Counted from the first letter of the stretch, positions 5,888-63,954 are shown. The stretch is 64,000 nucleotides of DNA from Roseobacter sp. (GCA_039983935.1 JBDWVP010000055.1:5048-69047), one strand, 5' to 3'. Numbers and translations are program-made. Notes: generated by a model not told the origin, from the letters alone.

Positions 5888-5922
5888 CCAGAGCCAGAAT
5901 CACACTACAAGGACGCAACCGA

Positions 5923-6945: not shown

Positions 6946-7159
6946 GTAATCTGGAAAGCGGCATATCGAAGCGCGGTTTTATTGTTTGTTGAGCTAATCA
7001 AAGTCAAAATGCATAATAAAAGAGCCTCAAAACAGTCGAAAAATCTCTAAAATGGCCGGCAGAAGGCGGGCTACCACCCTAAAAAGGTAAATATTTTCAA
7101 CTTTTAATAGCACAGTGTTATAAACAAAAAATAGTAAGTATCATAGGTTCGGATTTTGT

Positions 7160-30643: not shown

Positions 30644-30690
30644 GATCTGCTCCTTTCGATTCAGGCTCTAAAGTATATTTAGAGCCTATT

Positions 30691-32079
30691 TTATACTGTT
30701 TTATTCTCAGCGGCGCGTGCCAATTCATCCCGCCGCCAACTTCCAACCAAAAGCCGCTTAAGCGAAGCGTAGGTTTCGTCAAACGTGGCACGCCCCCGTG
30801 CATAGGTATCTCGATTGAAATCACGATAATCTGCTTCGTATATTCCATTGACGGTCTCGCCTGCCTGCCCGATCAACGCGGTGAAATCTTGACGGTAAGG
30901 CGAAAGCTGCCGCCCCAGATAAGCTTGCATCAAACCGGCCATTTCAGCTTGCTGACTGCCGTCATAACGCGTGATAACTGTTTGCACGGCATCCCACTCA
31001 AAGCGCAGCTCCGGCCGTCCTAGCGCCCGAGCGGCCATATTTTCGCCTTCCTCGATCGATTCAAAGGCAGAGTGCAGCATGTCAAAGAAGCGACCCGTTG
31101 AATCGAACTCCACAAAAGAGGCCCCAGTCGGCACAATAAGGATGTCTGCGGCTGTCAGCCCGTTGATCGTCAGGTAACCAAGTGCGGGCGGTGTATCGAG
31201 AACCACAAGGTCATAACGCTCAAGCAGATCGCCATCCTCCAGCGCTTCACTCAATGCGTCCCACAGTTTCCAGCCTCTTGCAGCCATACGCCAGACTGGG
31301 ATTTGAAATTCAGACCAATACAGGTTGAGCTGCGCGCCGATCAAATCAATATTGGGCCAATGCGTTGGACGCACGAGATCCTCAGGATTAATCTCCAAAG
31401 CCTCGCTTAATGTGTCATCCAGAGGAAGCGGCGCTTCCCCTCGATCAAGCCTTCGCTGATTTTCACTGCGCAGATACTTGGCATAATGCCGGGCAATCAT
31501 CGGAAAAACAGTTTGCCATTCATCGTTGACCTGCCCGTTCAGAATGGATGTCATGGATCCTTGGCTGTCCAGATCCACCACAAGCACCTTGTAGCCGTCT
31601 AGCGCGGCTGACATAGCCAGATGCGCTGCGGTGGATGTTTTACCCACGCCGCCTTTGAAGTTCGCAACGGCAACAATTTTGGCCGGAAGCCCCTTTGGGC
31701 GATATGGAAGGTAATCCTTAGACTTTGATCCCTCTGCTCCAAAATGCGCGCGCAGTAACAAGACCTCATCGAAGGTAAACCACTTAGCCCCCCCTTCGGT
31801 TTCTGAGCGTCCTTGCGGCAACTCAGTGTTTTGGCGCAAGACACGCCGGAAGTGTGCCGGGGCCACGGGGATTAGATATTTGGTGATTTCCCAGGTTGAA
31901 AACATCCTGAGTGTTTTTGTCCCATCGGGATTCATTCCACGCCCGGCGAGATCAGTACGGCCCCGTAAACACGCTTTTGCTATCTCAGCAAAGTCTTCGG
32001 TCTGAACAGGAGACTCCATTGAAGCCATGGCTGCATCGGGTGAAATATTGAAATAGGGGGGGCGGGTTGCGTTATTCAT
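30691..32079 (-). CDS. parA: ParA-family partition ATPase with long N-terminal extension
   Basis: Deviant Walker A 'ANFKGGVGKTSTAAHL', plus 'VLVVDLDSQGS' and 'DLVVLDTPPALG'. ATG at 32079 is preceded by 'GAGGG'; the ORF track extends to 32142. Confidence 0.85.
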   Translation of the reverse strand: MNNATRPPYFNISPDAAMASMESPVQTEDFAEIAKACLRGRTDLAGRGMNPDGTKTLRMFSTWEITKYLIPVAPAHFRRVLRQNTELPQGRSETEGGAKWFTFDEVLLLRAHFGAEGSKSKDYLPYRPKGLPAKIVAVANFKGGVGKTSTAAHLAMSAALDGYKVLVVDLDSQGSMTSILNGQVNDEWQTVFPMIARHYAKYLRSENQRRLDRGEAPLPLDDTLSEALEINPEDLVRPTHWPNIDLIGAQLNLYWSEFQIPVWRMAARGWKLWDALSEALEDGDLLERYDLVVLDTPPALGYLTINGLTAADILIVPTGASFVEFDSTGRFFDMLHSAFESIEEGENMAARALGRPELRFEWDAVQTVITRYDGSQQAEMAGLMQAYLGRQLSPYRQDFTALIGQAGETVNGIYEADYRDFNRDTYARGRATFDETYASLKRLLVGSWRRDELARAAENKTV

Positions 32080-32142
32080 GTAGCCCTCATGTGACGTCTT
32101 TTTATTAAGATACCTGAAAACACGGTATATGCAAGAAAACAC

Positions 32143-39353: not shown

Positions 39354-41810
39354 CTACTGTTTCTCAGTTTCGGGGCTTACTTGTTGCAACTGCGCGAGCT
39401 GTTGCCGGGCTCTGTCCACTTGAAAGCGATTATCCTGGGTATCGGCCATCTCTAGAACACGTTGGTAGGCGGCGATTGCATCCTGTGGGCGTTCGAGTGC
39501 GGCGTAGGTCTCTGCGAGGTGGTATTGTACAATTGGATCTTGAGGTAACCCGGTTGCAGCGTTTTCCAGATAGGGCAGGGCGGTTTCTACATCTCCGCGC
39601 CGGAACGCAAGCCAACCATAGGTATCTTGGAAAGCGGGCACTTCGGTATCGCGTAAACGCCGCGCGATTGTCCACGCTCGGTCGAGACTAGCTTCATCAT
39701 CCTTGTAGGTTACCAATAGGCTGGCCAGGTTGTTGGCAAAAATAACCAATCCGGTGTCGCGCGCATAAAGTCCTTCATAGATTGCAATTGCGTCATCTAT
39801 CTGTCCGGATTGCTCTAGTTCTACGGCCTTGATCCAGAGCAGGACTGGTGAGTCAGGTATGGCTTGGAGGGCTTCATCCAATACGGCGCTTGAGGCGGTG
39901 TCACCATTTTCAGCCTGAGTAATGCGGTAAAGTTGCTGCCATACAGTAACATTGGTTGGATCTTCGGTTGCCAGCTCTCGCATACTTGCCTGAGCCGTTG
40001 CCAGATCGCCAGTGGCCGCACGGGTCATTGCAAGCAGGAAGCGGCGATTTAGATCATCCGGTGCTTCCGCTACCAGTTCTTCAGAGAGACGCAAGGCTTG
40101 ATCAAGTTGTCCGGATGCAAGGCGCGCACGCAAAAGAGCCACTTGTTCGTTTAGTCCAGCATCAGCGCCTTGTGCCATTTGCTCAAGGAACGCCAGCGCT
40201 TCTGTATTGCCGTCCTGACGGGCCAGGAGTTGAATTTGTAATTGGTTTGCGGCGGCCTCGGATGCTTCTGTTTCTACCCGGCGGAGCTGTTCGACAACCA
40301 TTTCGGCGCGGCCGAAATCGTCTGTGTTTAAATATATTTCACCCAAAAGCGTCAATATCTCTTGGCTCCGAGGGGTCCGGCGCAGAGCTGAAATCAGCAC
40401 TTCTTCGGCCGCCCGGCTGTTATCTTCGCTCATCAAAAGCCGTGCATAGCGTAGAGAGGAGGCCGGCGCATGGTCTGACACATCAACAGCCTGGGCGATG
40501 AAATCACGCGCCAGATCACGGCTCCCGGACCTGAGATAAGCATCAGCCATCAGGTTTAATGCTTGCTCATCTTCTGGCTGGGAATCGAGAGCCCGACGTA
40601 GGTTGGCAATGGCCGAGTCTGCTTCATCCGCTTCGATCAGTTGGGCTGCGTTGATTTTCAATGCAGCGACATTATCACCATCAGCTTCTAGAACCTCACC
40701 GATCAGCCGCTGTGCTCCAACTTCATTGCCTGTGGCCTGCAGCATGCGCGATAGGGCAACTTTGATTTCGTTCAGTAGCTCGGATGGCTCCGCGCGATCT
40801 ATGATCTCTTGCAGAGCAGAGATTGCTACGTCACGTTCCCCGTCTTCGAAATCAAGCGCGGCTCGGATGACCCGCAAGCGGTCAGGTTCCGGGTTAACAT
40901 CTAGGGCAGCATCAATTTCTGCGCGGGCTGCGTCATTGCCACGTGTCTGTTTAACGAACTGCACAAGGCTGACAAACAACGTAGGATCTGCATCGGTCGG
41001 GTCGCTGATTTCGCGCAAGAAAGTCTCGGCTTTCTCTTGTTCACCTGTTGCAATGAAATATTGGACCAACCGGCTCTTTGCTTCGAGATCCTCGGGGAAG
41101 GTGTCGACGACATCCCGTAAATGCGCTTCGATCTTCTCGCGATCACCCGTTTCTCGCAACAATAGCAGCCGTTGCTCGTAATAATGGCGTGTTTGTGGCG
41201 CACGGGAGATCATTTTTTCCAGCTGCGCCAGCGCTTTATCTGCAGCAGGAGCCCCGGCACGTAGATAGGTATCAAATAGGATCTGTTCTAGAATACTACT
41301 GTCTGCGAACGTATCCATCATTGTTTCTGCGCGGATGGATACGCCTTCGATGGCTGGTGTATCGCTGTCCAAAACAGCCTGGCGGTATTGCAAGGCCAAT
41401 TCGATTACTTGGCTGCTGGGGCGATCTGGATCCAATTCAACAGCGCGCTGGCCGTGGCGTTCAAATTCTTCCCAGTTGCGGCCTTCAAAGGCCAATTCCG
41501 CCAGGGCTGTGCGTCCCTCGGCATCATCTGGGAGTTGTTCAACCAGACGCAAGTATTGGCCATAGGCGGCAGCGCGATTTCCTTGTTCCATCATCAGCTG
41601 GGCCATGCTGCGCCGGGCGTCTGCGTGGTTTGGGATCAATTCAAAAACATTGCGTAATTCGATAATTGCGCGATCCGGGTCACCGGCTGCAATTAATTCT
41701 TGCGCAGATTCGAAGTAGGCATCAGCTTTGTCTTCTGCTGACTCACAGGCTGCAAGGGTCAGGCAGAGCCCGCTGATTGCTAGAACTTTAATGAATATTT
41801 GACCGCGCAT
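39354..41810 (-). CDS. Large TPR-repeat lipoprotein (PrsT-like, PEP-CTERM-locus type)
   Basis: Lipobox 'LCLTLAAC' directly after the 'MRGQIFIKVLAISG' start (ATG 41810, SD 'GGAG'). The remaining ~800 aa consist of TPR-like A/L/E/R-rich repeats. Confidence 0.75.
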   Translation of the reverse strand: MRGQIFIKVLAISGLCLTLAACESAEDKADAYFESAQELIAAGDPDRAIIELRNVFELIPNHADARRSMAQLMMEQGNRAAAYGQYLRLVEQLPDDAEGRTALAELAFEGRNWEEFERHGQRAVELDPDRPSSQVIELALQYRQAVLDSDTPAIEGVSIRAETMMDTFADSSILEQILFDTYLRAGAPAADKALAQLEKMISRAPQTRHYYEQRLLLLRETGDREKIEAHLRDVVDTFPEDLEAKSRLVQYFIATGEQEKAETFLREISDPTDADPTLFVSLVQFVKQTRGNDAARAEIDAALDVNPEPDRLRVIRAALDFEDGERDVAISALQEIIDRAEPSELLNEIKVALSRMLQATGNEVGAQRLIGEVLEADGDNVAALKINAAQLIEADEADSAIANLRRALDSQPEDEQALNLMADAYLRSGSRDLARDFIAQAVDVSDHAPASSLRYARLLMSEDNSRAAEEVLISALRRTPRSQEILTLLGEIYLNTDDFGRAEMVVEQLRRVETEASEAAANQLQIQLLARQDGNTEALAFLEQMAQGADAGLNEQVALLRARLASGQLDQALRLSEELVAEAPDDLNRRFLLAMTRAATGDLATAQASMRELATEDPTNVTVWQQLYRITQAENGDTASSAVLDEALQAIPDSPVLLWIKAVELEQSGQIDDAIAIYEGLYARDTGLVIFANNLASLLVTYKDDEASLDRAWTIARRLRDTEVPAFQDTYGWLAFRRGDVETALPYLENAATGLPQDPIVQYHLAETYAALERPQDAIAAYQRVLEMADTQDNRFQVDRARQQLAQLQQVSPETEKQ

Positions 41811-41986
41811 CGCTGAACTCCACAAACTTTGTACCCGTATTGCTCGTCTGAGGGTACTGACCAACAAGCTAAACATGTTGTTGGTGTATATGGCAGGGAT
41901 ATTCTGAAATATACTATATTTTCATTAACGTGATGAGTGCGTGAATATTCGTCTGGAAAATATAGAGAAGCTATAATTGTGGGGAT

Positions 41987-42676
41987 TTAGAGGCCTGTGG
42001 CGCGCACTACAACGCCGACGGTTTGAAACAGGATACGCACGTCAGTGACGAAAGACACGTTGCGTGCATAGCCATCATCAAACACCGCGCGGCCAGCAAA
42101 CACACTGTCGTTACGCTCGGACACCTGCCATGGGCCTGTAATTCCTGGGCGCAGCGCATAGTAAGCGCGGCCAGGGTAAAGGCTCTTTTGGGACACCATC
42201 ATTGGGCGTGGTCCCACCAGTGACATGGAGCCTGTCAGGACGTTCCACAGCTGTGGGAGTTCGTCCATTGAGCTTTTACGCAGCAACACACCAATACGCG
42301 TGATGCGTGGGTCATGGCGCAGTTTCTGGCTCGCGTCCCATTCAGCTTTGGCTGCTGGGTTGGTTGCGAGGTATGTTTTCAGCGCTTGGTCTGCATCGGG
42401 GACCATTGTGCGAATCTTCCAAATGCGGAATTGGCGCCCACCGCGACCGATGCGGATTTGGGAATAGAAAGGGTTATGTCCATCCAGCGCCACAATCACA
42501 CAAGCGAGTACAATCAAAGGTAAGATCGGCAGGACTGCAAGCACCACAAGGGCGACGTCAATCCAGCGTTTTACGAAACGATTATAAGTACTTCTCACTC
42601 GATACGGCTGCTTTGTAGCAGGTTTTACATATTCTGCATGCGTAGAAGAATTTAAAAAATGAACAGTCATAAACAC
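41987..42676 (-). CDS. Undecaprenyl-phosphate sugar phosphotransferase (WbaP/ExoY-type priming transferase)
   Basis: 'KRWIDVALVVLAVLPILPLI', 'RIGRGGRQFRIWKIRTM' and 'DELPQLWNVLTGSMSLVGPRP'. Confidence 0.85.
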   Translation of the reverse strand: MFMTVHFLNSSTHAEYVKPATKQPYRVRSTYNRFVKRWIDVALVVLAVLPILPLIVLACVIVALDGHNPFYSQIRIGRGGRQFRIWKIRTMVPDADQALKTYLATNPAAKAEWDASQKLRHDPRITRIGVLLRKSSMDELPQLWNVLTGSMSLVGPRPMMVSQKSLYPGRAYYALRPGITGPWQVSERNDSVFAGRAVFDDGYARNVSFVTDVRILFQTVGVVVRATGL

Positions 42677-43020
42677 TCAAACTCCCGAAGTGACTCAAAA
42701 CACAGTCACGCGTTACACTCACACTAATCCGTCAGAATAGACGGTACCACCACTTATCTTCAAACTTATGTCATCATTTAAGAGAATATTAACAAAATTG
42801 CAAATGGAACGTGGATTCAAGGTTACCAAATGAGAGTCATGCTTAATGCTTGTTCATTTTTCCTTGGGGGGACAGTTTTTTTGAAATTCCACGTGTCTGT
42901 TTAGAAAAGGTACTTAAATTTCGAGCATGATAATGGTCTTTCAATTCTGGTGCAGGTGCGTGACAGTATCAGGTGTTGTTGCTAAGGAAGCGCCCGAACG
43001 TATTAGACGGAGAATGCACC

Positions 43021-43587
43021 GTGCAAATCGAGCAAACTGGATTAGAAGGTGTTGTGGTATTGAAACCTCAGCGTTTTGGGGATGCCCGAGGGTTTTTCTG
43101 TGAAAGCTGGAACCGCAGCCGGATGGCAGAGGCAGGCTTTGACATTGATTGGGTTCAGGACAACCATTCGCTTTCAGAAGCGGTTGGGACGATCCGTGGG
43201 TTACATTTCCAGGCACCACCACATGCGCAGGCCAAATTGGTGCGATGTGGTCGTGGCGCTTTTTATGATGTGGTCGTGGATATTCGCCGTGGCTCACCCA
43301 CTTATGGGCAATGGTACGGTATCGAGTTGAGCTTTGAGAATGGCCAACAGCTTTTGGTTCCCGAGGGGTTTCTGCATGGTTTTGTGACCCGTGCCCCTGA
43401 CACCGAAATCATTTACAAATGTTCTGACTATTATTCCCCTGAGGCTGATGGGGCCGTACGTTGGGATAGTTGTGGCATCGATTGGGGATTTGGTAACACG
43501 CAGCCGATTTTGTCGCAAAAGGATGCCGCGGCCCCGGCGCTGGATGATTTTGACACGCCCTTCGTCTGGGATAAGACAAGAAATTAA
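43021..43587 (+). CDS. rmlC: dTDP-4-dehydrorhamnose 3,5-epimerase
   Basis: 'GVVVLKPQRFGDARGFFCESWN' and 'RGLHFQAPPHAQAKLVRCGRGAFYDVVVD'. GTG at 43021 lies 6 nt after 'GGAGAA'; the ORF track starts at 42973. Confidence 0.9.
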   Translation: MQIEQTGLEGVVVLKPQRFGDARGFFCESWNRSRMAEAGFDIDWVQDNHSLSEAVGTIRGLHFQAPPHAQAKLVRCGRGAFYDVVVDIRRGSPTYGQWYGIELSFENGQQLLVPEGFLHGFVTRAPDTEIIYKCSDYYSPEADGAVRWDSCGIDWGFGNTQPILSQKDAAAPALDDFDTPFVWDKTRN

Positions 43588-43645
43588 TGATCCTTTGGGA
43601 TAAACCCGCCGTGCCAACTCGATTTTCGTAACAAAGGGATGTTTT

Positions 43646-44689
43646 ATGAAGCTTTTGGTAACCGGCGGGGCAGGGTTTATTGGCTCAGCTGTGGTACGAC
43701 TCGCCGTGGCGCGTGGACATGAGGTGATAAATCTCGACGCGCTGACCTATGCGGCCTGTCTGGATAACGTGGCAGCTGTGGCGGACAATCCGCTTTATAC
43801 CTTTGAAAAGGCCGACATTCGCGATCGCGCTGCCCTTGATCGTATTTTCGCAGAACATTCGCCGGATGCGGTCATGCATCTGGCCGCAGAGTCTCATGTG
43901 GACCGCTCCATCGACGGGCCGGGCGATTTCGTCGAGACCAATATCACTGGCACCTACAATATGCTTGAGGCGGCGCGCGGCTATTGGGAAGGGCAGGGGC
44001 GGCCAGAGAGCTTTCGGTTCCACCACATTTCTACGGATGAGGTTTTTGGCAGCTTAGGCGCCGAAGGCCAGTTTACCGAAGAGACCCCTTATGACCCCCG
44101 CTCCCCCTATTCGGCGTCCAAGGCAGCCTCGGACCATCTGGTCCGCGCATGGCTTGAAACCTATGGGTTGCCGATCGTTCTGACCAATTGTTCCAATAAC
44201 TACGGGCCTTATCATTTCCCCGAAAAGCTCATCCCTGTGGTGATCCTGAACGCACTGGCCGGAAAACCACTGCCGATTTACGGCGATGGCTCCAATGTGC
44301 GTGATTGGCTTTATGTCGAAGATCACGCGGATGCGCTGCTCTTGGTGCTGGAAAAGGGTGCGGTTGGCCGCTCCTATAATATCGGGGGCGAAAACGAACG
44401 CTCTAACCTCGATCTGGTGAAAACGCTTTGCGCGACCCTGGATGAGATGCGCCCAAAAGAGACCGGTTCCTATGGGGATCAGATTACATTTGTGACGGAT
44501 CGTCCGGGCCATGATGCACGCTATGCGATTGATCCTGCACGCATCCGCGATGAACTAGGGTGGCGCCCGTCGGTCAATGTCGAAGAAGGCCTGCGGCGCA
44601 CAGTGGCCTGGTATCTGGACAACGAAGAATGGTGGCGCGCATTACAAAACCGCCATGGTGTTGGTGACCGTCTTGGCGTGACCGCATGA
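43646..44689 (+). CDS. rmlB: dTDP-glucose 4,6-dehydratase
   Basis: '[17 protein letters not shown]', 'ISTDEVFG' and '[15 protein letters not shown]'. Confidence 0.95.
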
Positions 44690-45531
44690 CCTTGCTTGTT
44701 TTTGGCAAAACCGGCCAGGTGGCAACGGAATTGGCCCGATTAGCGCCCGATGCAACATTTTTGAGCCGGGATCAGGTGGATTTGGCCGACCCTGCGCAAG
44801 TTGCTGCGATCCTATCCCAAACCCAAGCGGATGCCATTATCAATGCTGCGGCTTATACGGCAGTGGACAAAGCTGAGAGCGAAGCGGATGTTGCACAGGC
44901 TGTTAATGGCACCTCGGTCGGCATCATGGCGGCCCATGCCGCGGCGCAGGGCATTCCATTTGTGCATATTTCCACTGATTATGTTTTTGATGGCACCGGG
45001 GCCAGCCCCCGTGCGCCGCACGAGGCAACAGGCCCATTGGGTGTTTATGGTGAGAGTAAGCTGGCGGGCGAGGCTTTGATCACGGGGGCAGGGGGCATCT
45101 TTGCGATCCTGCGGACATCTTGGGTGTTTTCAGCCCATGGGAACAACTTTGTAAAAACCATGCTGCGCTTGTCCGAAAGCCGGGATCAACTGAGCATTGT
45201 GGCCGACCAGATTGGGGGTCCAACCCCGGCTGGGGCAATTGCACAGGCCTGCTTGGCCCTTGTCGAAGCCTTGAAGGCAGAATCCGGCAAGTCAGGAACC
45301 TATCACTTCAGCGGCACACCTGATGCAAGTTGGGCAGATTTTGCGCGGTGCATTTTTGCGGCGGCAGGTCGGGACATTAGTGTCGAAGACATCCCCACCA
45401 CGGCATTTCCAACGCCGGCTGCTCGCCCGCTGAATTCTCGGCTGGATTGTGCCACATTACAGACTGAATTTGGCATTAGCCGCCCTGACTGGAAAACCGC
45501 TGTCGCACAGATCGTTGGAGAGCTGACATGA
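44686..45531 (+). CDS. rmlD: dTDP-4-dehydrorhamnose reductase
   Basis: '[13 protein letters not shown]', '[13 protein letters not shown]' and 'YGESKLAGE'. ATGA overlaps occur at both ends. Confidence 0.9.
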
Positions 45532-46397
45532 GCACACGTAAAGGTATCATTCTGGCAGGGGGATCGGGTACGCGGCTCTATCCGATCACGTTGGGCGTTT
45601 CGAAACAACTGCTGCCGATTTACGACAAGCCAATGATTTACTATCCGCTAACCGCCTTGATGCTTGCCGGCATCCGGGAGATTGCATTGATCACCACGCC
45701 GCAAGATCAGGACCAGTTTCGGCGCATGTTGGGGGATGGATCGCAGTTTGGTATTTCGCTCACGTATATCGAACAACCCGCGCCAGATGGGTTGGCACAG
45801 GCGTTCATTCTCGCCGAAGATTTTCTGGCTGGGTGTCCGTCAACGCTGGTTTTGGGGGATAATATTTTCTTTGGTCATGGTCTGCCCAAATTGATGGCCG
45901 CCGCAGATGAAAAGCCTCAGGGCGCGACGGTCTTTGGCTATCAGGTGGCGGATCCGGAACGCTATGGGGTTGTTGATTTCTCTGCTGATGGCACGGTGCG
46001 ACGCATTATCGAAAAACCGACAACACCGCCGTCGAATTTTGCAGTAACGGGTCTGTATTTTGTCGATGGTACGGCGCCGGAAAAAGCGCGCGCCGTGAAA
46101 CCTTCAGAGCGTGGTGAACTCGAGATCACCACCCTGCTAGAGATGTATCTGGCTGAAGGCAGCCTGTCCGTTCAACGTATGGGGCGTGGCTATGCTTGGC
46201 TTGATACGGGCACCCATGCATCGCTGCTGGACGCGGCAAATTTCGTGCGCACAATTGAACAACGACAAGGCCTACAAATCGGTAGCCCTGAAGAAGTCGC
46301 CTACCAAATGGGCTGGATTGATGCAGACGTCCTGCGCGATCAAGCGCAACGCTATGCCAAAAATGACTACGGGCGCTATCTCGAAGGATTGCTTTGA
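45528..46397 (+). CDS. rmlA: Glucose-1-phosphate thymidylyltransferase
   Basis: '[37 protein letters not shown]' and '[13 protein letters not shown]'. Confidence 0.95.
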
Positions 46398-51755: not shown

Positions 51756-53069
51756 TCACGTGCTACGATTTGCTAGAACTTTGGTGTAAATCTCGACGAT
51801 TTTGCGCGCTTTTGCGGGCCATGTGAAATCGTCAAACACCCGTGTTTGGGCGTGCTTTGCCATCGAGGGCAGGGTATCGCGGTTCTCTAGAATACTATCC
51901 AGGACGTGGCGCAGGGCGACGATAATTTCGTCTCGAGAACCAATTGGGACGGCAAAACCGGTCTCTGGTGTGACGAGCTCTCCGGGTCCCGCGTAATCTA
52001 CAATCACTGGAACCACGCCCAGCGACATTGCTTCCAAGACAACACCCCCGCCGAACTCGCGAATGGAGGGGAAAAGCAGGATGTTGGACTGTACTGCAAT
52101 GTCCTGAACGGTCTCATGCGCCATCTGCCCGTGGAAGGTGACCGCATCTCCTAAGCCGGCGTCCTGAACCATAGCCTCTAGCGCGCCGCGCATTGGGCCG
52201 TCGCCGATAACGTCAAGCCGCATTGCGCCGCTTTCCAGATGTGGTCGCGCAGCTTCGATCCCCATATCGAGCCCCTTGTACGGCACAAGCCGCCCAATAA
52301 AGACCCCCCGCAACGGGCCTTCTGTGCGCTGTTCGGCGATACGAGAGAACCGCGTAGTGTCGATCGCATTTTCTGGGCAATAATAGACCCTATCCTGAAG
52401 GTCTTCTGGGATTTCGCTCGCAGTATGACGTGAACCGGCCAGAAAGGCCGCCGTCGATTTCAACATTCGCGACCGACCGGGCATCAATTTGTAGGCATCG
52501 CGTACGTAGGACAACCATTCCCGTTCGCGTCGTCGCTCTGTGTCAAACCCTTTTGGCCAAGGGACACCGCCGTTGAGAGGGCCGACCATAAACGGCACCC
52601 CAGCTGCGGCGCATTTCGCGGCGATCGGTGAAACTGTTGTAGGGGTCAGCGGTGTGACACGATGTACGATATCATAGTGACCAGCTTTGATATCCGAGCC
52701 AAAACGTTGCCACACCAGACGCTCGAAATAGGGGTAACTAAGGACCGCAATGGCTGTGTTCATTGTCCAACCTTTGCCGCTGCCCATGCGCAGTACCTGA
52801 GCTAGTTTATGCATGGGTTTGGAGATGGCTTCTGAATCTATTGCCGTAAAATCTGTGCCTTCGATGTAACCGGCCCGCAAAATCGCCTCTTTGTTGCGGA
52901 TTTGAGTCACCAGATGCACATCCGCCACCTCGCGCAAAGCATGTGCCAACGACCAGCCAACCAACGGAACGCTTACCCATTCGGGGTTTGCGGCTTCGGC
53001 AATTAACAGAATTCGGGGGCGGGATATCGGATCATGATGTGTCTGGTCATGTGTCACGAGTGTCTCCAT
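51756..53069 (-). CDS. GT-B glycosyltransferase (GT4-like)
   Basis: 'ILLIAEAANPEWVSVP' and the C-terminal 'ILLFPSIREFGGGVVLEAMSLGVVPVIVDYAGPGELV'. Confidence 0.75.
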   Translation of the reverse strand: METLVTHDQTHHDPISRPRILLIAEAANPEWVSVPLVGWSLAHALREVADVHLVTQIRNKEAILRAGYIEGTDFTAIDSEAISKPMHKLAQVLRMGSGKGWTMNTAIAVLSYPYFERLVWQRFGSDIKAGHYDIVHRVTPLTPTTVSPIAAKCAAAGVPFMVGPLNGGVPWPKGFDTERRREREWLSYVRDAYKLMPGRSRMLKSTAAFLAGSRHTASEIPEDLQDRVYYCPENAIDTTRFSRIAEQRTEGPLRGVFIGRLVPYKGLDMGIEAARPHLESGAMRLDVIGDGPMRGALEAMVQDAGLGDAVTFHGQMAHETVQDIAVQSNILLFPSIREFGGGVVLEAMSLGVVPVIVDYAGPGELVTPETGFAVPIGSRDEIIVALRHVLDSILENRDTLPSMAKHAQTRVFDDFTWPAKARKIVEIYTKVLANRST

Positions 53070-53144
53070 TCTTCAGCGTCGGTGCGCGGATAACATGATC
53101 GTCAAAAAGGCAGAAGAAGAAATACACATCTCTCTCCCGTAGTA

Positions 53145-53792
53145 TCAAAGCATGCGTGGATGCCGGTCAATTAATGGTGCTAAGATGCCGCCCGCAACAA
53201 GACCGCCAAGGTGCGTCTGCCAAGCCAGTTGCCCCGCGAGAACCCACCATAACACGACGTTTAGTCCAACCAGAATTGCCAATGTTGCGAGGACCGGGCG
53301 AAGGCTGTCCCTGTCGGCGCGCCGGTCTATAAAATCCCATGCAAGCAGCCCCCCCGCGAGACCAAAAAGGGCCCCTGAGGCCCCCACCATCAGGCTGGGT
53401 CCGCTGGCCAGCAATGCGTATCCTGCCGCGCCACCAATCATTGTGCCAAGATAAAGCAGTGAAAACCCCGCGACCCCCACCCGGGCTAACACGGCGTATC
53501 CGAGAGACCATAACGTGACCATATTGACCACCAAATGGACGGGTCCACTGTGCAGGAAACCGTAGCTGAGAAACATCGCATAGGGCTGGGCTGTATAATT
53601 GGGCTGCCAATGATGCAACAGACCAACCCAGAAGCCGCCGTACTCATAGAATGTGGCACGTAACCGAGGCGACAATTCCAGATGGTTTGCCAGTTGCAAT
53701 GACCCCTCGACCCCAACGCAGGCTGCAATCGTCAAAATTAGAAGCCATCGACCTTGCACGGGTTTTTTGGAAGAAAGATCGGGTTGCACCAT
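53145..53792 (-). CDS. Minimal six-TM rhomboid-family intramembrane serine protease
   Basis: TM2 'FLHSGPVHLVVNM', TM4 catalytic 'GASGALFGLAGG' and TM6 catalytic 'QTHLGGLVAGG'. ATG at 53792 is preferred; the ORF-track start at 53846 is a TTG lying inside the duplicated promoter segment. Confidence 0.85.
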   Translation of the reverse strand: MVQPDLSSKKPVQGRWLLILTIAACVGVEGSLQLANHLELSPRLRATFYEYGGFWVGLLHHWQPNYTAQPYAMFLSYGFLHSGPVHLVVNMVTLWSLGYAVLARVGVAGFSLLYLGTMIGGAAGYALLASGPSLMVGASGALFGLAGGLLAWDFIDRRADRDSLRPVLATLAILVGLNVVLWWVLAGQLAWQTHLGGLVAGGILAPLIDRHPRML

Positions 53793-53859
53793 GAGATGAT
53801 AATGCCGTTGCGATGGGCTGAATAGCAAGAGGCTGAACCTGTTCAAATGCGCTGAAGTC

Positions 53860-53890
53860 TTGACAGATCGCTCGCATAAATTGTTAATAT
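53860..53890 (+). promoter_or_regulatory. Candidate sigma70-type promoter of VPLPA-tail gene copy 1
   Basis: 'TTGACA' (53860-53865), then a 17-19 nt spacer, then 'gTTAATAT'. It is conserved in copy 2. Confidence 0.45.
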
Positions 53891-53934
53891 ATTATTAAAT
53901 TTTTGGTTTTTTCGAACTAATAAACATGTCATTT

Positions 53935-54777
53935 ATGTTTCAGATTTTAGTGGAGTACTTTAAATTGCATTTTTTCAAAATTTCCCTTTTGGCGGGTCTG
54001 TTGACAGCCTCAGCCAGCACTGCTTCAACCATCGTTTCCCAATATGATGCCTTTGCCTCGATTTCGGTGAGCATTACGTCCGCCACCTTTGAACATTCTG
54101 GTGCTGATGCGCTGCCTGCGCTGAGCAACAGACATTGGGATGATGGCGTTGATTCTGGGACGGCTACTTCTGGTAGCGGGCAGCTATTGCGTACGCGGTC
54201 TGGAAACCCAGGAGTTCAGGGCGTGTCGAGCTACAGCGCATCCATGTCCGTGAGTGGTCATGCAAGCCCAACCGAGACATTTAGTCTCAGCGCTATAGGC
54301 GATTATATCCTGCCGACCTTCTACTACGGGCATTCATGCTCAAGATCTTCGACTGTTAATTGCGCTGATATTGATCGGGTGATGTTGGAGTTGTCTTTCG
54401 AAGTGGAGACACGCGTAACGACAGAGGTTTTCGATCCTTTGACAGGGGACGCATCGGCACATGCATCTGCCTTTCTGGGGTTCGAATATTTCTTGGGGCA
54501 ATATCAGTCCTCAACAGCGGACGGTTGGGATTTTCGCGTCGATGCCAGCGGCAATTCACTCTTTAGCGGCAGTTATAGTTTGGCCCTGGAGGCGGATTCA
54601 TCCCTCGGGTTGATGCTTTATTTTCCTTCTGTCAGGGGGAACGCATCCTATACGGCGCACTCGGCCCCATCCACAGTTCCGCTGCCCCCAGCAACGCCGC
54701 TTCTGGCTTCGGGGGTGTTGTTACTTGGACTGATGTCCAAGCGGGGCGGGAGCGCCCGAAAAAAAGCAGCGGCTTAA
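53935..54777 (+). CDS. Secreted Ser/Thr/Gly-rich protein with VPLPA/PEP-CTERM-type C-terminal sorting tail (copy 1)
   Basis: Signal peptide 'KISLLAGLLTASA|STAS'. Tail 'STVPLPPATPLLASGVLLLGLMSKRGGSARKKAAA' (motif + TM helix + basic cluster). ATG at 53935 is the start conserved with copy 2; the ATG at 53926 is followed by a stop in the copy-2 equivalent. Confidence 0.7.
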   Translation: MFQILVEYFKLHFFKISLLAGLLTASASTASTIVSQYDAFASISVSITSATFEHSGADALPALSNRHWDDGVDSGTATSGSGQLLRTRSGNPGVQGVSSYSASMSVSGHASPTETFSLSAIGDYILPTFYYGHSCSRSSTVNCADIDRVMLELSFEVETRVTTEVFDPLTGDASAHASAFLGFEYFLGQYQSSTADGWDFRVDASGNSLFSGSYSLALEADSSLGLMLYFPSVRGNASYTAHSAPSTVPLPPATPLLASGVLLLGLMSKRGGSARKKAAA

Positions 54778-54844
54778 TCAGACCATAGTCCGGCGCGATC
54801 GGCTGAATAGCAAGGGGTTGAACTTGTTCAAATGCGCTGATGTC

Positions 54845-54875
54845 TTGACAGATCGGCCGCATAAATTTTTAATAT
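54845..54875 (+). promoter_or_regulatory. Candidate sigma70-type promoter of VPLPA-tail gene copy 2
   Basis: 'TTGACA' (54845-54850), then a spacer, then 'tTTAATAT'. It is the duplicate of 53860-53890. Confidence 0.45.
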
Positions 54876-54919
54876 ATAATTAAATTTCTGATTTTTACGA
54901 ACTAATGAACATGTAATTT

Positions 54920-55774
54920 ATGTTTCGATTTTTAATGGAGTACTTTAAATTGCGTTTTTTCAAAATTTCCCTTTTGGCGGGTCTGCTGACAGCCTCAGCC
55001 AGCACTGCTTCAACCATCGTTTCCCAATACGAGGCCTTTGCCTCGATTTCGGTGAGCATTACGTCCGCCACCTTTGAACATTCTGGTGCTGATGCGCTGC
55101 CTGCGCTGAGCAACAGAAATTGGGGGGATATCTCTGATTCTGGGTCGTCTGTTTCTGGCACTGGGCAAGAATTTCAGGGCGGGGGCGGGTTTGGATACCC
55201 AAGAACGCCGGGAGGGAGTGCGTCGAGCTACACTAAGACCGGTTTTGTGAATGGTTATGCAACCCCAACCGAGACATTTGGTTCCAGCGGTAGAGCCGAT
55301 TATTTAACGCCGAGTTTCTACTACGGGCATTCATGCACAACATCTTCGACCGTTAATTGCGCTGATATTGATCGGGTGATGTTGGAGTTATCTTTCGAAG
55401 TGGAGACACGCGCAACGGCAGAGGTTTTCGATCCTTTGACAGGGGATGCATCGGCACAAGCATCTGCCTTTCTGGGGCTCGAATATTTCTTGGGGTCTAA
55501 TCAGCGCGGAGCAATGGACGGTTGGGATTTCCGCGTCGATGCCAGCAGCAATTCACTCTTTAGTGGCAGTTATAGTTTGGCTATGGATGCGGGTTCATCC
55601 CTTGGGATGGGGGTTTATATTCACCGTGTCTGGGGGAGCGCATCCTATACGGCGCACTCGGCCCCATCCACGGTTCCACTACCCCCAGCAACGCCGCTTC
55701 TGGCCTCGGGGATGTTGTTACTTGGACTGATGTCCAAGCTGGGCGGGAGCACCCGAAAAAAAGCGGCGACTTAA
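54920..55774 (+). CDS. Secreted Ser/Thr/Gly-rich protein with VPLPA/PEP-CTERM-type C-terminal sorting tail (copy 2)
   Basis: Paralogue of copy 1 with the same signal peptide and the tail 'STVPLPPATPLLASGMLLLGLMSKLGGSTRKKAAT'. The central segments are diverged. Confidence 0.7.
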   Translation: MFRFLMEYFKLRFFKISLLAGLLTASASTASTIVSQYEAFASISVSITSATFEHSGADALPALSNRNWGDISDSGSSVSGTGQEFQGGGGFGYPRTPGGSASSYTKTGFVNGYATPTETFGSSGRADYLTPSFYYGHSCTTSSTVNCADIDRVMLELSFEVETRATAEVFDPLTGDASAQASAFLGLEYFLGSNQRGAMDGWDFRVDASSNSLFSGSYSLAMDAGSSLGMGVYIHRVWGSASYTAHSAPSTVPLPPATPLLASGMLLLGLMSKLGGSTRKKAAT

Positions 55775-56694
55775 TCAGCCCATAGTTCGGCGCGATCGGC
55801 TTCAATTTCGCTGACGGCGCGTGCCTTCCCAACGAGGAGGGCGCGACGCTGATAGGCGCGAATGAAGCGGCGCAGCTCAGCGTCACCATTGCGTTCGGCT
55901 CCGCGCAACATTGCCCCGAAATACCCCTGCGCAATCGCAAGACCCCCCAACACATAAGGTTTCTGGCGCATCTTATTGACGACCGAAGCGAGCAGAAAGG
56001 CCGGACCAGTCCCCATGTAGTACTGACCAAACCCGTGCCGCCGCCGCCCGGTGAAAATACTGGTCTGGCTCGACCCCATGGGGCGTAAATGGTTGAAGCG
56101 CAGTTCCGGCACATCCCAGCTGACCGCCTTCCAGCCCATCATGCGGGCCTTGTGGCAGTCAATCCCGTCCCACATCACTTCGCGCACAAATCCTCCGAGT
56201 GCCTCGAAGGCGCTGACGCGGTAAAATTTGGTCATGCCCAGTGACATATCATCAGAGATATTCTCGGATTGCATTTGCCCCGTCTCATTTTCGAAATAGG
56301 CTTTGCCAGAACATGACGCGATACGTGGATCGGCCTCCATCCGTTTGATCAGTTCGCCAAAGTAGCCATGCGGCAGATCAAGATCGAGATCCAGCTTGCA
56401 CAAATAGGTATAATCCGTCGGGGTGAGAGTTTCATAGCCTGCGTAAAACGCCTCGATCACGCCGGGACCTACAGCCCGGTGACCGCGGTCAGGTTTTGGA
56501 ACGACTGTGATCCAATCGTGTTGTGCGGCATATTCCGCAAGAATTTGTGGCGTGGCATCGGTAGAGCCATCATCGACGATGATCCAGCGGGTTGGCTGCA
56601 CGGTTTGAGCCACAACACTATCGAGCGTGCGACGCATGTAATCCGCCTCGTTCCGGCAGGGTGAAATGAGCACATAGCTTTGGGGATCAGGCAT
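55771..56694 (-). CDS. Family 2 glycosyltransferase
   Basis: 'YVLISPCRNEADYMRRTLDSVVAQTVQPTRWIIVDDGSTDATPQIL' and 'CKLDLDLDL' (DxD region). Its 3' end overlaps the stop of copy 2 by 4 nt. Confidence 0.8.
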   Translation of the reverse strand: MPDPQSYVLISPCRNEADYMRRTLDSVVAQTVQPTRWIIVDDGSTDATPQILAEYAAQHDWITVVPKPDRGHRAVGPGVIEAFYAGYETLTPTDYTYLCKLDLDLDLPHGYFGELIKRMEADPRIASCSGKAYFENETGQMQSENISDDMSLGMTKFYRVSAFEALGGFVREVMWDGIDCHKARMMGWKAVSWDVPELRFNHLRPMGSSQTSIFTGRRRHGFGQYYMGTGPAFLLASVVNKMRQKPYVLGGLAIAQGYFGAMLRGAERNGDAELRRFIRAYQRRALLVGKARAVSEIEADRAELWAD

Positions 56695-57065
56695 AATGGA
56701 ACGCTTCCGTGTCTGTTGCGGATCTACTTTGACTTGTGCCCCAAACCGCGGTGACGTCGCAAGGGAAACGGTCGAGCAGGGGACAACTGTTACCGATATG
56801 TCGGGTCACACCTCTCCCGAGGATCATGCCTCGCAAGATATATGGAATGGTCAACCTTGCTATGTGGTTCCAATAGGGACACGTATCGATACTCTTGATG
56901 CACATACTGCTTTCTAGAGTGATGATCTTAATACATTGTTCAGCGCCTTGCTGTTCAGAACAGAAAGATGACCGTATTTCTACTGTGCCTACGAAAAAGG
57001 CGCTTTACCCATCTGAAGGTCTGGCTCAGGCCCAAAGCTGGCGACCAAAAGCACTTGCGGTGTAT

Positions 57066-57707
57066 TTAAGATCTCAGAGATAACCCAGCGTGATGAATAC
57101 ATCCGAGAAGCAAGATACTTACCCCGACAAGTTCCAATCCCTCCTCGACAAGAACTTGTGGGGGAGAACTCATGCCACCAAGGAAACCATAATATCCCAA
57201 TACTTCGGCGATAACACCGCCTGATATTAAAACTGCAAATCCAGCGCCAACGAGTGCCGCAGACTTAATGTCGGCTTTCGCAGCGATAAAAATGGAACGG
57301 TACAATGCAAGAAATAATATTGCGAACAGGGTTAAATAGACAAAAACCCATGCCCCATTTGTTCCACGAAACATTGGCAAGCCAATGCCATTTGCCTTGT
57401 TCCAACTCGTGATCCGCTCATGCAACATCAGGATCTCATCAGCCGATAAGAAAGCAAGGCCGATAGCCAAAACCAAATACAGTGTAATCCCTACTGCCAT
57501 ACGCTCAGGTGCGAATAATGGTACAATTGCCACGGCTGCCGCAGCCAGGAAAAGTTTTGCACCACCCCACCAAGCACCGAAATTCCCTTCGCCATCGAGG
57601 GATAAAAGGCCCGGCCATGATCCTAAGAAAACGTGTACGACGTAAAGGGCCACCAAGGCCAAATCAATTGCAATCAGAATTGTCGTCAATCGAGCCAAGG
57701 GTACCAT
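57066..57707 (-). CDS. Hypothetical integral membrane protein (~6 TM)
   Basis: Six hydrophobic segments. No family motif was recognised. Confidence 0.55.
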   Translation of the reverse strand: MVPLARLTTILIAIDLALVALYVVHVFLGSWPGLLSLDGEGNFGAWWGGAKLFLAAAAVAIVPLFAPERMAVGITLYLVLAIGLAFLSADEILMLHERITSWNKANGIGLPMFRGTNGAWVFVYLTLFAILFLALYRSIFIAAKADIKSAALVGAGFAVLISGGVIAEVLGYYGFLGGMSSPPQVLVEEGLELVGVSILLLGCIHHAGLSLRS

Positions 57708-61432: not shown

Positions 61433-62230
61433 TTACGTTGACTTTAGCGTCACCGCTGGTGATGTGGCGATAAAGAAGGGATTGGCAAAATCTTCCTTGC
61501 CATATTCCAATGGCGCAAGACCGTCAAAACGAACAACTTTACCCCCGGCACCTGACAGGACTGCATGTCCGGCTGCAGTGTCCCATTCCATGGTGCGCCC
61601 CAAGCGCGGATACAAATCCGCCTCTCCCGTGGCCACAAGACAGAATTTCAACGACGATCCGGCACTGGTCATGTCTTTGACGTCATATTGACTAATGTAG
61701 TCATCTGTCGCCTGATCCCGGTGTGATTTCGACGCCACCACCATCAAGGCGGCATTGTCGCTGTCAGCCACCCGAATAGGGCGCGTTGTGCCAAGGGTGT
61801 CGCGCGCGAATGGGCCGTCTTCTTCGACCGAAGAACCATCCGCAAGGGTCAGGAACATGCGGTCCTTGGCTGGGGCATAAACAACACCACGCGTCGGCAT
61901 CCCTTTTTCCACCAATGCGATATTCACGGTGAAATCACCCCGACGGTGGATGAATTCCTTGGTGCCGTCCAAAGGATCGACAATCAGGAACGTATCGCCA
62001 GACAGCCCGTGGCTGGCTGACTGTTCTTCGGTGACCAGCATCACATCGGGAAAAGCCGCGCGCAGCCCATCAGAGATGATCTTATCCGCGGCCATATCGG
62101 CCGCCGTCACCGGGCTTTCGTCGGCCTTGGCTTGAACACCAAGATCTTCGCGCTGGTAGATTTCCATGATCGCAGCACCAGCATCCAGTGCCAGCGAGCG
62201 CATCACATCAGTTAGTTTTGCGTAATCCAT
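61433..62230 (-). CDS. cysQ: 3'(2'),5'-bisphosphate nucleotidase (PAP phosphatase)
   Basis: 'FLIVDPLDGTKEF' and 'WDTAAGHAVL' are inositol-monophosphatase-fold motifs. Confidence 0.85.
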   Translation of the reverse strand: MDYAKLTDVMRSLALDAGAAIMEIYQREDLGVQAKADESPVTAADMAADKIISDGLRAAFPDVMLVTEEQSASHGLSGDTFLIVDPLDGTKEFIHRRGDFTVNIALVEKGMPTRGVVYAPAKDRMFLTLADGSSVEEDGPFARDTLGTTRPIRVADSDNAALMVVASKSHRDQATDDYISQYDVKDMTSAGSSLKFCLVATGEADLYPRLGRTMEWDTAAGHAVLSGAGGKVVRFDGLAPLEYGKEDFANPFFIATSPAVTLKST

Positions 62231-62244: not shown

Positions 62245-63954
62245 TTATCCGTTGATCAATCCCATAGATTCCAGCTTGAGCAGAACCTGATGGGCACAGT
62301 TATCAACATCAACGTTTTCAGTTTCAACGCTCAGCTCAGGGCTTTCCGGAACATCATAGGGGTCTGAAATACCTGTGAATTCCTTGATCTTTCCTTCGCG
62401 CGCCAGCTTATAAAGACCTTTGCGGTCCCGGCGCTCGCATTCGTCAATCGACGTCGCAACATGCACTTCAACAAAGGCACCAAATGCTTCGACATCTTCA
62501 CGCACAGCGCGGCGGGTTGTGGCGTAAGGCGCGATTGGGGCGCAGATCGCAATGCCGCCGTTTTTGGCAATCTCAGAAGCAACATAGCCGATCCGACGGA
62601 TGTTGAGATCGCGGTGCTCCTTGGAGAAACCCAGCTCGGAAGACAGGTTTTTGCGCACGATATCGCCATCAAGCAGCGTCACGGGACGGCCACCCATTTC
62701 CATTAGTTTAACCATCAAAGCATTTGCGATGGTGGATTTTCCGGAGCCTGAGAACCCGGTGAAGAAAACCGTAAAACCCTGCTGGTTGCGTGGTGGGCGT
62801 GTGCGGCGCAGCTCGGTGACCACTTCGGGGAAAGAGAACCATTCGGGAATTTCCAGACCCTCTTGCAGACGACGGCGCAATTCGGTGCCCGAGATATTGA
62901 GGATGGTGACGTCATCCTTGTCTTTAATCTCGTCCATCGGTTCGTATTGCGCGCGATCTTCGACCCAAACCATATGTTTGAAGTCGACCATTTCGATGCC
63001 CATTTCTTCTTCGTGGGCCCGGAAAAGATCCTGCGCATCATAAGCGCCGTAGAAATCTTCGCCGGCAGAATTTTTGCCAGGGCCTGCGTGGTCGCGACCA
63101 ACGATGAAATGTGTGCAGCCGTGGTTTTTACGGATCAGCCCGTGCCAGACTGCTTCGCGGGGGCCTGCCATACGCATCGCTAAGTTGAGCAGGCTCATGG
63201 ATGTTGTCGCTGCTGGGTATTTATCCAACACCGCCTCGTAACAACGCACGCGGGTAAAGTGATCTACATCGCCGGGCTTCGTCATGCCAACAATTGGGTG
63301 AATAAGCAGGTTTGCCTGTGCTTCACGTGCCGCGCGGAAGGTGAGTTCCTGGTGTGCACGGTGCAGCGGGTTGCGGGTTTGGAAGGCCACAACCTTGCGC
63401 CAGCCCAGTTTGCGGAAATAGGCGCGCAATTCGTTAGGCGTGTCACGGCGCGCGCGGAAATCATAATGCACAGGCTGCTGAATGCCGGTGATTGGTCCGC
63501 CAAGATAAATTTTACCGGCTTCATTGTGCAGGTAGTTCACGGCCGGGTGGGCCAGATCGTCGGCACCAAAGATTTTTTCCGCTTCGCGTGCCTTATCCGG
63601 CGCCCAGCGATCGGTCACTGTCATGGTGGCCAAAATTACACCTTCTTGGTCGCGCAGGGCGATGTCTTGCCCAACCTCGAGGCTTTCGGCGAATTTTTCG
63701 GACACATCGAGCGTAATTGGCATTGGCCAAAGCGCGCCGTCGGTCAGGCGCATATTCTCTACAACGCCATCATAATCGGCTTCGGAGAGGAAACCTTTGA
63801 GCGGGTTAAACCCACCATTCATCAACAGCTCCAGATCACAGATCTGACGAGGGGTAAGATCGTGGGAGACGAGCTCACCCGCTTCTACCTTTAATTTTTG
63901 AGCACTCTCGTAAGAGACGTAAAGTTCGGGGATCGGGGCAAGGTTATTCAACAT
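62245..63954 (-). CDS. Bifunctional sulfate adenylyltransferase (Sat-type ATP sulfurylase) / adenylylsulfate kinase
   Basis: ATP sulfurylase motifs 'FQTRNPLHRAHQEL' and 'HGCTHFIVGRDHAGPG'. The C-terminal APS kinase has the P-loop 'FTGFSGSGKSTIA'. Confidence 0.9.
   Translation of the reverse strand: MLNNLAPIPELYVSYESAQKLKVEAGELVSHDLTPRQICDLELLMNGGFNPLKGFLSEADYDGVVENMRLTDGALWPMPITLDVSEKFAESLEVGQDIALRDQEGVILATMTVTDRWAPDKAREAEKIFGADDLAHPAVNYLHNEAGKIYLGGPITGIQQPVHYDFRARRDTPNELRAYFRKLGWRKVVAFQTRNPLHRAHQELTFRAAREAQANLLIHPIVGMTKPGDVDHFTRVRCYEAVLDKYPAATTSMSLLNLAMRMAGPREAVWHGLIRKNHGCTHFIVGRDHAGPGKNSAGEDFYGAYDAQDLFRAHEEEMGIEMVDFKHMVWVEDRAQYEPMDEIKDKDDVTILNISGTELRRRLQEGLEIPEWFSFPEVVTELRRTRPPRNQQGFTVFFTGFSGSGKSTIANALMVKLMEMGGRPVTLLDGDIVRKNLSSELGFSKEHRDLNIRRIGYVASEIAKNGGIAICAPIAPYATTRRAVREDVEAFGAFVEVHVATSIDECERRDRKGLYKLAREGKIKEFTGISDPYDVPESPELSVETENVDVDNCAHQVLLKLESMGLING

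Follow-up and report, generated by a model that had tools for sequence, protein, structure and literature searches.

A rhomboid protease clade in the genomic neighbourhood of XrtD and VPLPA-type C-terminal tails: a possible accessory component of an exosortase system in Rhodobacterales

Results

The rhomboid gene and the facing cargo genes

We have analysed a stretch of 64,000 nucleotides from Roseobacter sp. (GCA_039983935.1 JBDWVP010000055.1:5048-69047; this whole 64-kb stretch is hereafter the window), focusing on a gene encoding a rhomboid intramembrane serine protease (53145-53792, minus strand; 215 residues from its ATG, with an alternative TTG start at 53846) and on the two paralogous genes which face it. 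The first of these, encoding a protein of 280 residues (53935-54777, plus strand), lies head-to-head with the rhomboid gene, the two ATG codons being 142 bp apart, and the second (54920-55774, plus strand, 284 residues) encodes a product 75% identical to the first. Both products, here denoted cargo proteins, end in a tail resembling the VPLPA-CTERM sorting signal, which is assigned to the exosortase XrtD. A first-pass annotation of the window had already described the rhomboid with its catalytic signatures, the two secreted-protein genes and a single conserved C-x7-C pair in the cargo, and the reading frames, family matches, motifs and structural model reported below agree with that description.

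The rhomboid matches the Pfam family Rhomboid (PF01694, MEROPS S54) with 83.9 bits against a gathering score of 22.6 (E = 1.6e-23), and the motifs HLVVNM, GASGALFG and THLGG are all present. Indeed, H86 and N90 (HxxxN, transmembrane helix (TM) 2), G137, S139 and G140 (GxSG, TM4) and H194 (TM6) are invariant in 80/80 orthologs and, since these catalytic residues never vary, the clade is made of active proteases. The AlphaFold2 (AF2) model (pLDDT 73, pTM 0.74) has the six-TM rhomboid fold, and the top 16 PDB matches retrieved by Foldseek are all GlpG from E. coli or H. influenzae (probability 1.0, TM-score 0.54–0.69). Fold and HxxxN, GxSG and H catalytic architecture are thus the same as in E. 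coli GlpG (PDB 2ic8, 2o7l), whereas sequence identity amounts to only 18–22%, the cytoplasmic N-terminal domain is lacking, and the clade has both a dedicated genomic context and a distinct L1 region, W62-x2-N65-x3-Q69-P70, in which W62, N65 and Q69 are invariant in 80/80 orthologs and P70 is found in 72/80.

Homologs of the window rhomboid are numerous (2336, more than 120 of which at 55–77% identity), and among the matches listed, all those carrying an organism name are from Rhodobacterales. The best NCBIfam match is rhombosortase (TIGR03902), with a score of 28.5 bits (E = 1.2e-6) that remains far under the curated cutoff of 84; the protein is a true rhomboid and, as judged by this hidden Markov model (HMM), not a rhombosortase. 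NCBIfam release 20 contains no model for the clade, and the RefSeq names of its members are generic. One genome, that of Roseovarius litorisediminis CECT 8287, has two copies of the clade on different contigs, one of them in a full exopolysaccharide (EPS) locus, where a VPLPA gene follows it and XrtD is encoded 3 kb off by the opposite strand.

The cargo genes, together with their upstream regions, were produced by a tandem duplication (53805-55786, plus strand) of two units of ~985–997 bp, as evidenced by a repeat search in which 53805-54104 aligns with 54790-55089 at 92% and 54250-54549 with 55247-55546 at 88%. The encoded proteins are lineage-specific and consist of a signal peptide, a Ser/Thr/Gly-rich body, predicted to be mostly beta in paralog 1, the C-x7-C pair and the tail. 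They match neither a Pfam nor an NCBIfam family, and only 3 homologs were found among 5.8e9 proteins, all of which correspond to these two genes in metagenome-assembled genomes (MAGs) of closely related Roseobacter sp., where PGAP labels them 'hypothetical protein'; in these sister MAGs the tail is identical and the middle of the protein variable. The AF2 model of the cargo, built from a 4-sequence alignment, has a pLDDT of 39. Upstream of the cargo genes, an Rfam scan of 52500-57000 found no riboswitch (c-di-GMP or other) at E ≤ 1, and promoter and terminator scans remained at chance level.

Window tails compared with the VPLPA-CTERM signal

The consensus tail of both cargo proteins is STVPLPPATPLLASG[VM]LLLGLMSK[RL]GGS[AT]RKKAA, and the tripartite architecture of a VPLP motif, a TM helix and a basic cluster stands at the extreme C-terminus of both. 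In paralog 1 the tail is STVPLPPATPLLASGVLLLGLMSKRGGSARKKAAA (54670-54774, plus strand), with the Pro motif followed by the TM helix and a dispersed basic cluster; in paralog 2 it is STVPLPPATPLLASGMLLLGLMSKLGGSTRKKAAT (55667-55771, plus strand), as supported by the sequence, a tail HMM and homolog conservation. The VPLPA-CTERM model TIGR03370 (cutoff 25.35 bits) matches neither the whole cargo proteins at E ≤ 1 nor the isolated tails at E ≤ 10, and the same goes for all other C-terminal sorting-signal models of NCBIfam. We have used a tail HMM of our own, trained on 27 VPLPA-type tails from orthologous rhomboid loci, to which the window tails score 19.6 bits (E = 2e-4, paralog 1) and 16.8 bits (E = 2e-3, paralog 2), being the best matches outside the training set (next unrelated match, 12.9 bits). 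Also, the window tail VPLPPATPLLASGVLLLGLMSKRGG aligns without gaps to VPLPPGLPLLAGALLGLGLMRRRRG, the sub-threshold tail of a rhomboid-adjacent protein in locus L080 of Stagnihabitans tardus. We read the window tails as divergent VPLPA-type tails with a weakened, dispersed basic cluster. The VPLPA-CTERM flavour attributed to them by the first-pass annotation stands as regards architecture and our own HMM, but not as regards TIGR03370. No GlyGly-CTERM signal was found in the cargo beside the rhomboid, either in the window or in 10 orthologous loci.

An XrtD exosortase next to the window

Neither tblastn with XrtD nor NCBIfam scans of multi-TM reading frames identified an exosortase within the window, in agreement with the first-pass annotation, which had gone on to propose an exosortase-independent sorting system. 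This second step does not hold. In the frame of contig JBDUXC010000064.1 (GCA_039945275.1), whose record position 4967 corresponds to window position 1, an XrtD of 533 residues is encoded at record 938-2539, with a Pfam Exosortase_EpsH domain, a fused EpsI domain and a TIGR04152 score of 647.5 bits against a cutoff of 400. The cognate exosortase for VPLPA-CTERM is present in the window's genome, as a member of the same gene cluster, outside the left end of the window by ~2.4 kb and separated from the rhomboid by 55.6 kb; precisely such a canonical exosortase elsewhere in the genome had been named beforehand as evidence against exosortase independence. Moreover, the rhomboid clade co-locates with XrtD in other genomes, as detailed below.

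The neighbour divergent from XrtD (L164:2200-2895, same contig, ~2–3 kb left of window position 1) encodes a small secreted protein ending in the canonical VPLPA tail PVPLPASMLMFASAFGLLGAQRLRKKT. The arrangement mirrors that of the rhomboid and its atypical-tail pair, each enzyme having its own adjacent cargo.

Position of the rhomboid clade in XrtD and exopolysaccharide loci

We have carried out a survey of 80 species-level rhomboid loci, mostly labelled Rhodobacterales with a few MAGs labelled otherwise, of which 79 have a complete rhomboid reading frame, clustering the reading frames found in flanks of 10 kb. The rhomboid belongs to a single conserved gene cluster in at least 66 of these 79. 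One strand carries genes for a tyrosine-kinase-like protein, a chain-length determinant and an ATPase, and the other strand those for a sugar transferase, a PrsT-like TPR protein, a Wza-like protein, an outer-membrane-protein-like (OMP) product of ~479 residues, XrtD in part of the loci and, last, the rhomboid. In NCBIfam, the conserved families of this cluster are sub-threshold relatives of the families of the XrtA/PEP-CTERM system.

The gene of 530–570 residues found directly upstream of the rhomboid in many loci is XrtD (TIGR04152, 680.8 bits; cutoff 400). XrtD lies within 10 kb of the rhomboid in 24/79 loci, mostly immediately upstream on the same strand, and in most of these 24 the distance from the XrtD stop to the rhomboid start ranges from −32 to +78 bp, which suggests that the two genes are co-translated in one operon. 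Another 29 to 42 loci have the rhomboid right behind the OMP gene and no XrtD within 10 kb. We considered that XrtD had been lost from such loci and replaced by the rhomboid and rejected this explanation, as plasmids from genera represented among them (Roseobacter, Rhodovulum) have XrtD 8–25 kb off the rhomboid and the window's own contig has it beyond the 10-kb flank.

At the level of replicons the association is strict in one direction: the 10 PLSDB plasmids with the rhomboid (from Roseobacter, Rhodovulum, Jannaschia sp. CCS1, Haematobacter and Aliiroseovarius) all have XrtD as well, at distances of 5.8–87.5 kb. A protein search with XrtD gave 6071 matches, and a reverse search from XrtD in metagenomes located the rhomboid downstream in 33 of 62 informative loci, directly so in 26; when restricted to loci with at least 3 kb of downstream sequence, the figure is 16/32.

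Tail genes beside the rhomboid

A VPLPA-tail gene is found within 1.5 kb of the rhomboid in 10/79 loci, in varied orientations, and 9 of the 10 rhomboid-adjacent proteins tested exceed the curated TIGR03370 cutoff. The density of tail genes amounts to 11.6 per 100 kb at ≤500 bp from the rhomboid, as compared to ~1.3 per 100 kb at 1–10 kb, and below 1 kb the enrichment is 6-fold (binomial p = 1.9e-5), a statistic which overstates independence, since the loci are related and not fully independent. When the tails are removed, 14 rhomboid-adjacent cargo proteins fall into 12 unrelated families; the bodies being non-homologous, the tail is therefore the sole shared part. Simple inheritance as the cause of the adjacency is argued against by the varied orientations and the unrelated cargo bodies. 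Furthermore, the adjacency is kept outside the conserved EPS cluster, in three loci (L080, L069 and L061) having no XrtD and at most one cluster gene within 10 kb.

The neighbourhood analysis, which the first-pass annotation had put forward as a check, thus supports that this rhomboid clade is specifically linked to VPLPA-type tails. What survives of its proposal is the rhomboid as a partner of these tails; the rhomboid as their sole enzyme, acting in a system without an exosortase, does not.

One of the rhomboid-adjacent VPLPA-CTERM proteins (L071:10589-11239, minus strand) carries a 'choice-of-anchor C' domain (TIGR04362, 140 bits). Domains of this family occur with differing C-terminal anchors.

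Other genes of the locus and the replicon

All seven conserved EPS cluster families are represented in the window, in a gene order which is rearranged with respect to the 80 reference loci. The genes for the tyrosine-kinase-like protein (17807-18613), the chain-length determinant (18653-20191; TIGR03007, 184.8 bits, below cutoff) and the system ATPase (20193-21077; TIGR03015, 268.4 bits, below cutoff), all on the minus strand, encode products with 50–66% identity to the conserved cluster families by blastp. On the plus strand, and also identified by blastp, there follow a Wza-like export protein (22474-23076) and an OMP of ~466 residues (23036-24436, with a weak TIGR03016 match), whose genes in most relatives are directly upstream of XrtD and/or the rhomboid. 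The PrsT-like TPR protein (39354-41876, minus strand; blastp, and TIGR02917 with 214.8 bits) and the priming sugar transferase (41987-42676, minus strand; blastp, TIGR03022, TIGR03025) have been moved and inverted relative to the conserved cluster. The first-pass annotation had reported most EPS marker genes of PEP-CTERM loci; homologs of the XrtA-system genes are indeed there, but all of them under the curated cutoffs. The locus is part of a plasmid-type cluster for exopolysaccharide and surface proteins, of the XrtD/VPLPA-CTERM kind.

Partition genes of RepB-like and RepA-like type (29654-32142, minus strand; TIGR03454 with 64.9 bits and TIGR03453 with 193.7 bits, both below curated cutoffs) sit in the middle of the EPS cluster, and an rfbCBDA set is found at 42973-46397. 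These genes, together with similarity to plasmid pTB2 of Roseobacter denitrificans OCh 114 (NC_008387.1), suggest that the contig represents a roseobacter plasmid or chromid of the rhamnose/EPS type (for the comparison source, see PMC5030684). Plasmid pTB2 shares the rfbABCD genes, the tyrosine kinase, chain-length determinant and ATPase families, the ATP-sulfurylase/APS kinase family, the sugar transferase, TPR, Wza, OMP and rhomboid genes, VPLPA-CTERM proteins and XrtD, and also has the rhomboid and XrtD apart on one replicon, at 11.3 kb. The respective locus tags in pTB2 are RD1_RS20110 for the rhomboid, RD1_RS20160 for xrtD and RD1_RS20145 and RD1_RS20150 for cargo. Unlike in the window, its rhomboid directly follows the OMP gene and two annotated VPLPA-CTERM proteins are beside XrtD, whereas the window rhomboid has moved next to two lineage-specific cargo genes.

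In the immediate surroundings of the rhomboid and the cargo pair, a GT4 glycosyltransferase (EpsH-like; 51756-53069, minus strand; NF041879, 510 bits, below cutoff; Pfam Glycos_transf_1) shares the rhomboid's strand and follows it downstream, and a GT2 glycosyltransferase (55771-56694, minus strand; Pfam PF00535, 9e-19) is convergent with cargo paralog 2, its stop region overlapping the end of the latter by 4 bp. Two genes from the cargo pair, 57066-57707 (minus strand) encodes a protein of 213 residues with ~6 predicted TM helices, kept in a sister MAG. We have considered it as a hidden exosortase and discarded it, as neither Pfam nor NCBIfam assigns it to a family and tblastn shows no similarity between it and XrtD.

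Between XrtD and the EPS genes there is a polyketide-synthase-like group (5-11833, plus strand) with a giant reading frame of 2128 residues in the full contig, followed by a protein of 1557 residues with formyltransferase, AMP-binding, luciferase-like and PP-binding domains and closed by a phosphopantetheinyl transferase (11830-12555); the surface polymer may owe a lipid or acyl moiety to this group. A protein of 1165 residues encoded within the EPS cluster (26029-29526, plus strand) has C-terminal RTX-type calcium-binding repeats, which suggest a putative type I secretion substrate; a homolog is encoded downstream of the rhomboid in one reference locus (L005), and pTB2 has a pair of type I secretion permease and HlyD adaptor genes. 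The right part of the window encodes a CysQ-like protein of the inositol-phosphatase family (61433-62230, minus strand) and a bifunctional ATP-sulfurylase/APS kinase (62245-63954, minus strand). The product of 21389-22339 (plus strand), a suspected sulfotransferase, has no NCBIfam match, and pTB2 has an annotated sulfotransferase together with the same sulfurylase/kinase; there is here a hint that the polysaccharide is sulfated.

Discussion

Relation to known sorting systems

As in known XrtD/VPLPA-CTERM systems (TIGR04152, TIGR03370), a full-scoring XrtD with a fused EpsI domain is on the contig, homologs of the chain-length determinant, ATPase, tyrosine kinase, Wza-like protein, OMP, PrsT and sugar transferase are in the window, and the window cargo shares the tripartite tail architecture. 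The differences are that a rhomboid is a listed component of no exosortase system that we found, that both window tails stay under the VPLPA-CTERM model, and that, the window locus being rearranged, XrtD does not have the rhomboid directly downstream but at 55.6 kb.

Rhombosortase (RrtA) was tied to the GlyGly-CTERM signal by a similar, neighbourhood-type signal (Haft & Varghese 2011, PMC3237569). Here too, a minimal six-TM rhomboid is linked by neighbourhood to unrelated proteins sharing only a tail of motif, TM helix and basic cluster, and the relation is many-to-one, with adjacency being occasional. However, the window rhomboid reaches only 28.5 bits with TIGR03902, its neighbours have a VPLP-type signal instead of a GlyGly one, its clade is mainly from Rhodobacterales (alphaproteobacteria), and the window system includes a dedicated exosortase, which GlyGly-CTERM systems lack.

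Proposed role of the rhomboid

On the basis of an intact rhomboid gene, of XrtD on the same contig, of the conserved position of the clade in XrtD loci and of the enrichment of otherwise unrelated tail genes beside it, we propose with moderate confidence that the XrtD/VPLPA-CTERM system includes the rhomboid as an accessory intramembrane protease, which would act on VPLPA-type tails without replacing the exosortase. In the corresponding scheme, the cargo would be exported by Sec and kept in the inner membrane by its C-terminal helix, in an N-out/C-in topology which places the basic cluster on the cytoplasmic side. The canonical enzyme that recognises and cleaves VPLPA-type motifs would be XrtD, whose gene is 55.6 kb away on the contig. 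The rhomboid, whose Ser139/His194 site is expected to face the periplasmic leaflet, would cut the same class of Pro/Gly-rich type-I tail helices, either in parallel with XrtD, resulting in release instead of anchoring, or by editing or clearing tails that XrtD handles poorly. The atypical-tail neighbours (VPLPPATP..., with a weak basic cluster) would be the most likely local substrates. The predicted topology fits such a scheme, as the tails appear to be type-I, N-out/C-in helices whose periplasmic edge carries small residues along with helix-destabilising Pro/Gly. GlpG-type rhomboids cut at the periplasmic membrane edge of such helices. That the tails are rhomboid substrates, in which order the two enzymes would act and what the cleavage would yield are all points that we infer, and the data do not tell apart three outcomes considered, namely release of XrtD-anchored cargo, editing of poorly handled tails and clearance of leftover stubs.

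Several observations weigh against such a role. The window tails go unrecognised by TIGR03370, only ~13% of the ortholog loci have a directly adjacent tail gene, and the relatedness of the loci tempers the enrichment. VPLPA genes also cluster beside XrtD in loci which are free of the rhomboid (L116, L128, L100). Finally, 14 of 24 Rhodobacterales plasmids with XrtD have no rhomboid match at E ≤ 1e-20, and about half of the XrtD loci have no rhomboid nearby; XrtD therefore needs no rhomboid in cis. Still, a pattern in which every rhomboid plasmid has XrtD and only about half of the XrtD loci have a rhomboid nearby is the one expected for an accessory component.

Alternative explanations

The rhomboid might instead serve the EPS machinery, cleaving or quality-controlling a membrane component of EPS export or XrtD itself, with the nearby tail genes being incidental to a general clustering of VPLPA genes around XrtD/EPS loci. 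Indeed, the sugar transferase-PrsT-Wza-OMP-(XrtD) operon typically ends with the rhomboid gene, ~87% of the ortholog loci lack a directly adjacent tail gene, and the rhomboid-free loci L116, L128 and L100 indicate that XrtD alone can have such neighbours. Incidental tail genes should however be spread over the locus, and instead they peak within 500 bp of the rhomboid; the adjacency persists outside the EPS cluster (L080, L069, L061) and the adjacent proteins have nothing but the tail in common. We regard this explanation as unlikely.

Somewhat less probable still, in our opinion, is that XrtD cuts at the VPLPA motif and the rhomboid merely degrades the leftover peptide of TM helix and basic cluster. 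The tight operonic coupling and the strict co-occurrence with XrtD at the replicon level would fit a later step in the pathway, and sortase systems are known to face the problem of anchor peptides left behind. Nevertheless, GlpG-type rhomboids usually need residues N-terminal, i.e. periplasmic, of the scissile bond, which would render the stub a poor substrate, and about half of the XrtD loci, as well as other exosortase systems, manage without such a partner nearby.

The exosortase-independent system in which the rhomboid alone sorts these tails, as rhombosortase does for GlyGly-CTERM, is very improbable: the exosortase-free window, the head-to-head arrangement with two tail-bearing genes, the failure of the window tails with TIGR03370 (which could make them a rhomboid-specific flavour), the separate canonical cargo of XrtD on the contig with the atypical ones beside the rhomboid, and rhombosortase as the best, far sub-threshold NCBIfam match all speak for it, but XrtD is encoded 2.4 kb outside the window and on 10/10 rhomboid plasmids, the two genes are adjacent in many species with stop and start often overlapping, and the rhomboid-adjacent tails elsewhere are canonical VPLPA-CTERM, the signal assigned to XrtD. 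The small likelihood that we leave to it concerns a narrow sense, that of a cargo subset handled by the rhomboid only, as at the genome level it is already contradicted.

Implications

Returning to the accessory protease, we suggest tentatively, as a real possibility falling short of a probable one, that this mainly-Rhodobacterales rhomboid clade provides the XrtD/VPLPA-CTERM pathway with a second, dedicated intramembrane protease, which cleaves VPLPA-type tails. A literature search, with the 2012 study by Haft et al. (J Bacteriol), which reportedly defined exosortase subclasses, outside its reach, found no report that connects a rhomboid to XrtD, VPLPA-CTERM or exosortases in Rhodobacterales. 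As the first-pass annotation had supposed for a pairing of rhomboid and tail, neither an NCBIfam model nor the literature found describes it, and an exosortase recurrently paired with a dedicated rhomboid seems not to have been described before.

If the proposal is true, the clade would come after rhombosortase/GlyGly-CTERM as the second rhomboid known to be linked to a C-terminal sorting signal, and its sorting system would be the first to have the same signal class acted on by both an exosortase and a rhomboid; anchoring versus release of surface proteins would then possibly be decided by the pair. For genome annotation, the results argue for a dedicated family model for the rhomboid clade and indicate that tails like those of the window are missed by the current VPLPA-CTERM model. 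Exosortase systems are very widespread and their biochemistry is poorly understood, and to our knowledge only few natural substrates of bacterial rhomboids have been identified; by its conservation and frequent operon coupling in the XrtD locus, the present clade points to a class of natural rhomboid substrates that is directly testable. Roseobacters are major marine surface colonisers, and the location of these genes on roseobacter rhamnose/EPS plasmids means that the finding bears on how these bacteria decorate their surface, in which VPLPA-CTERM sorting may involve two proteases.

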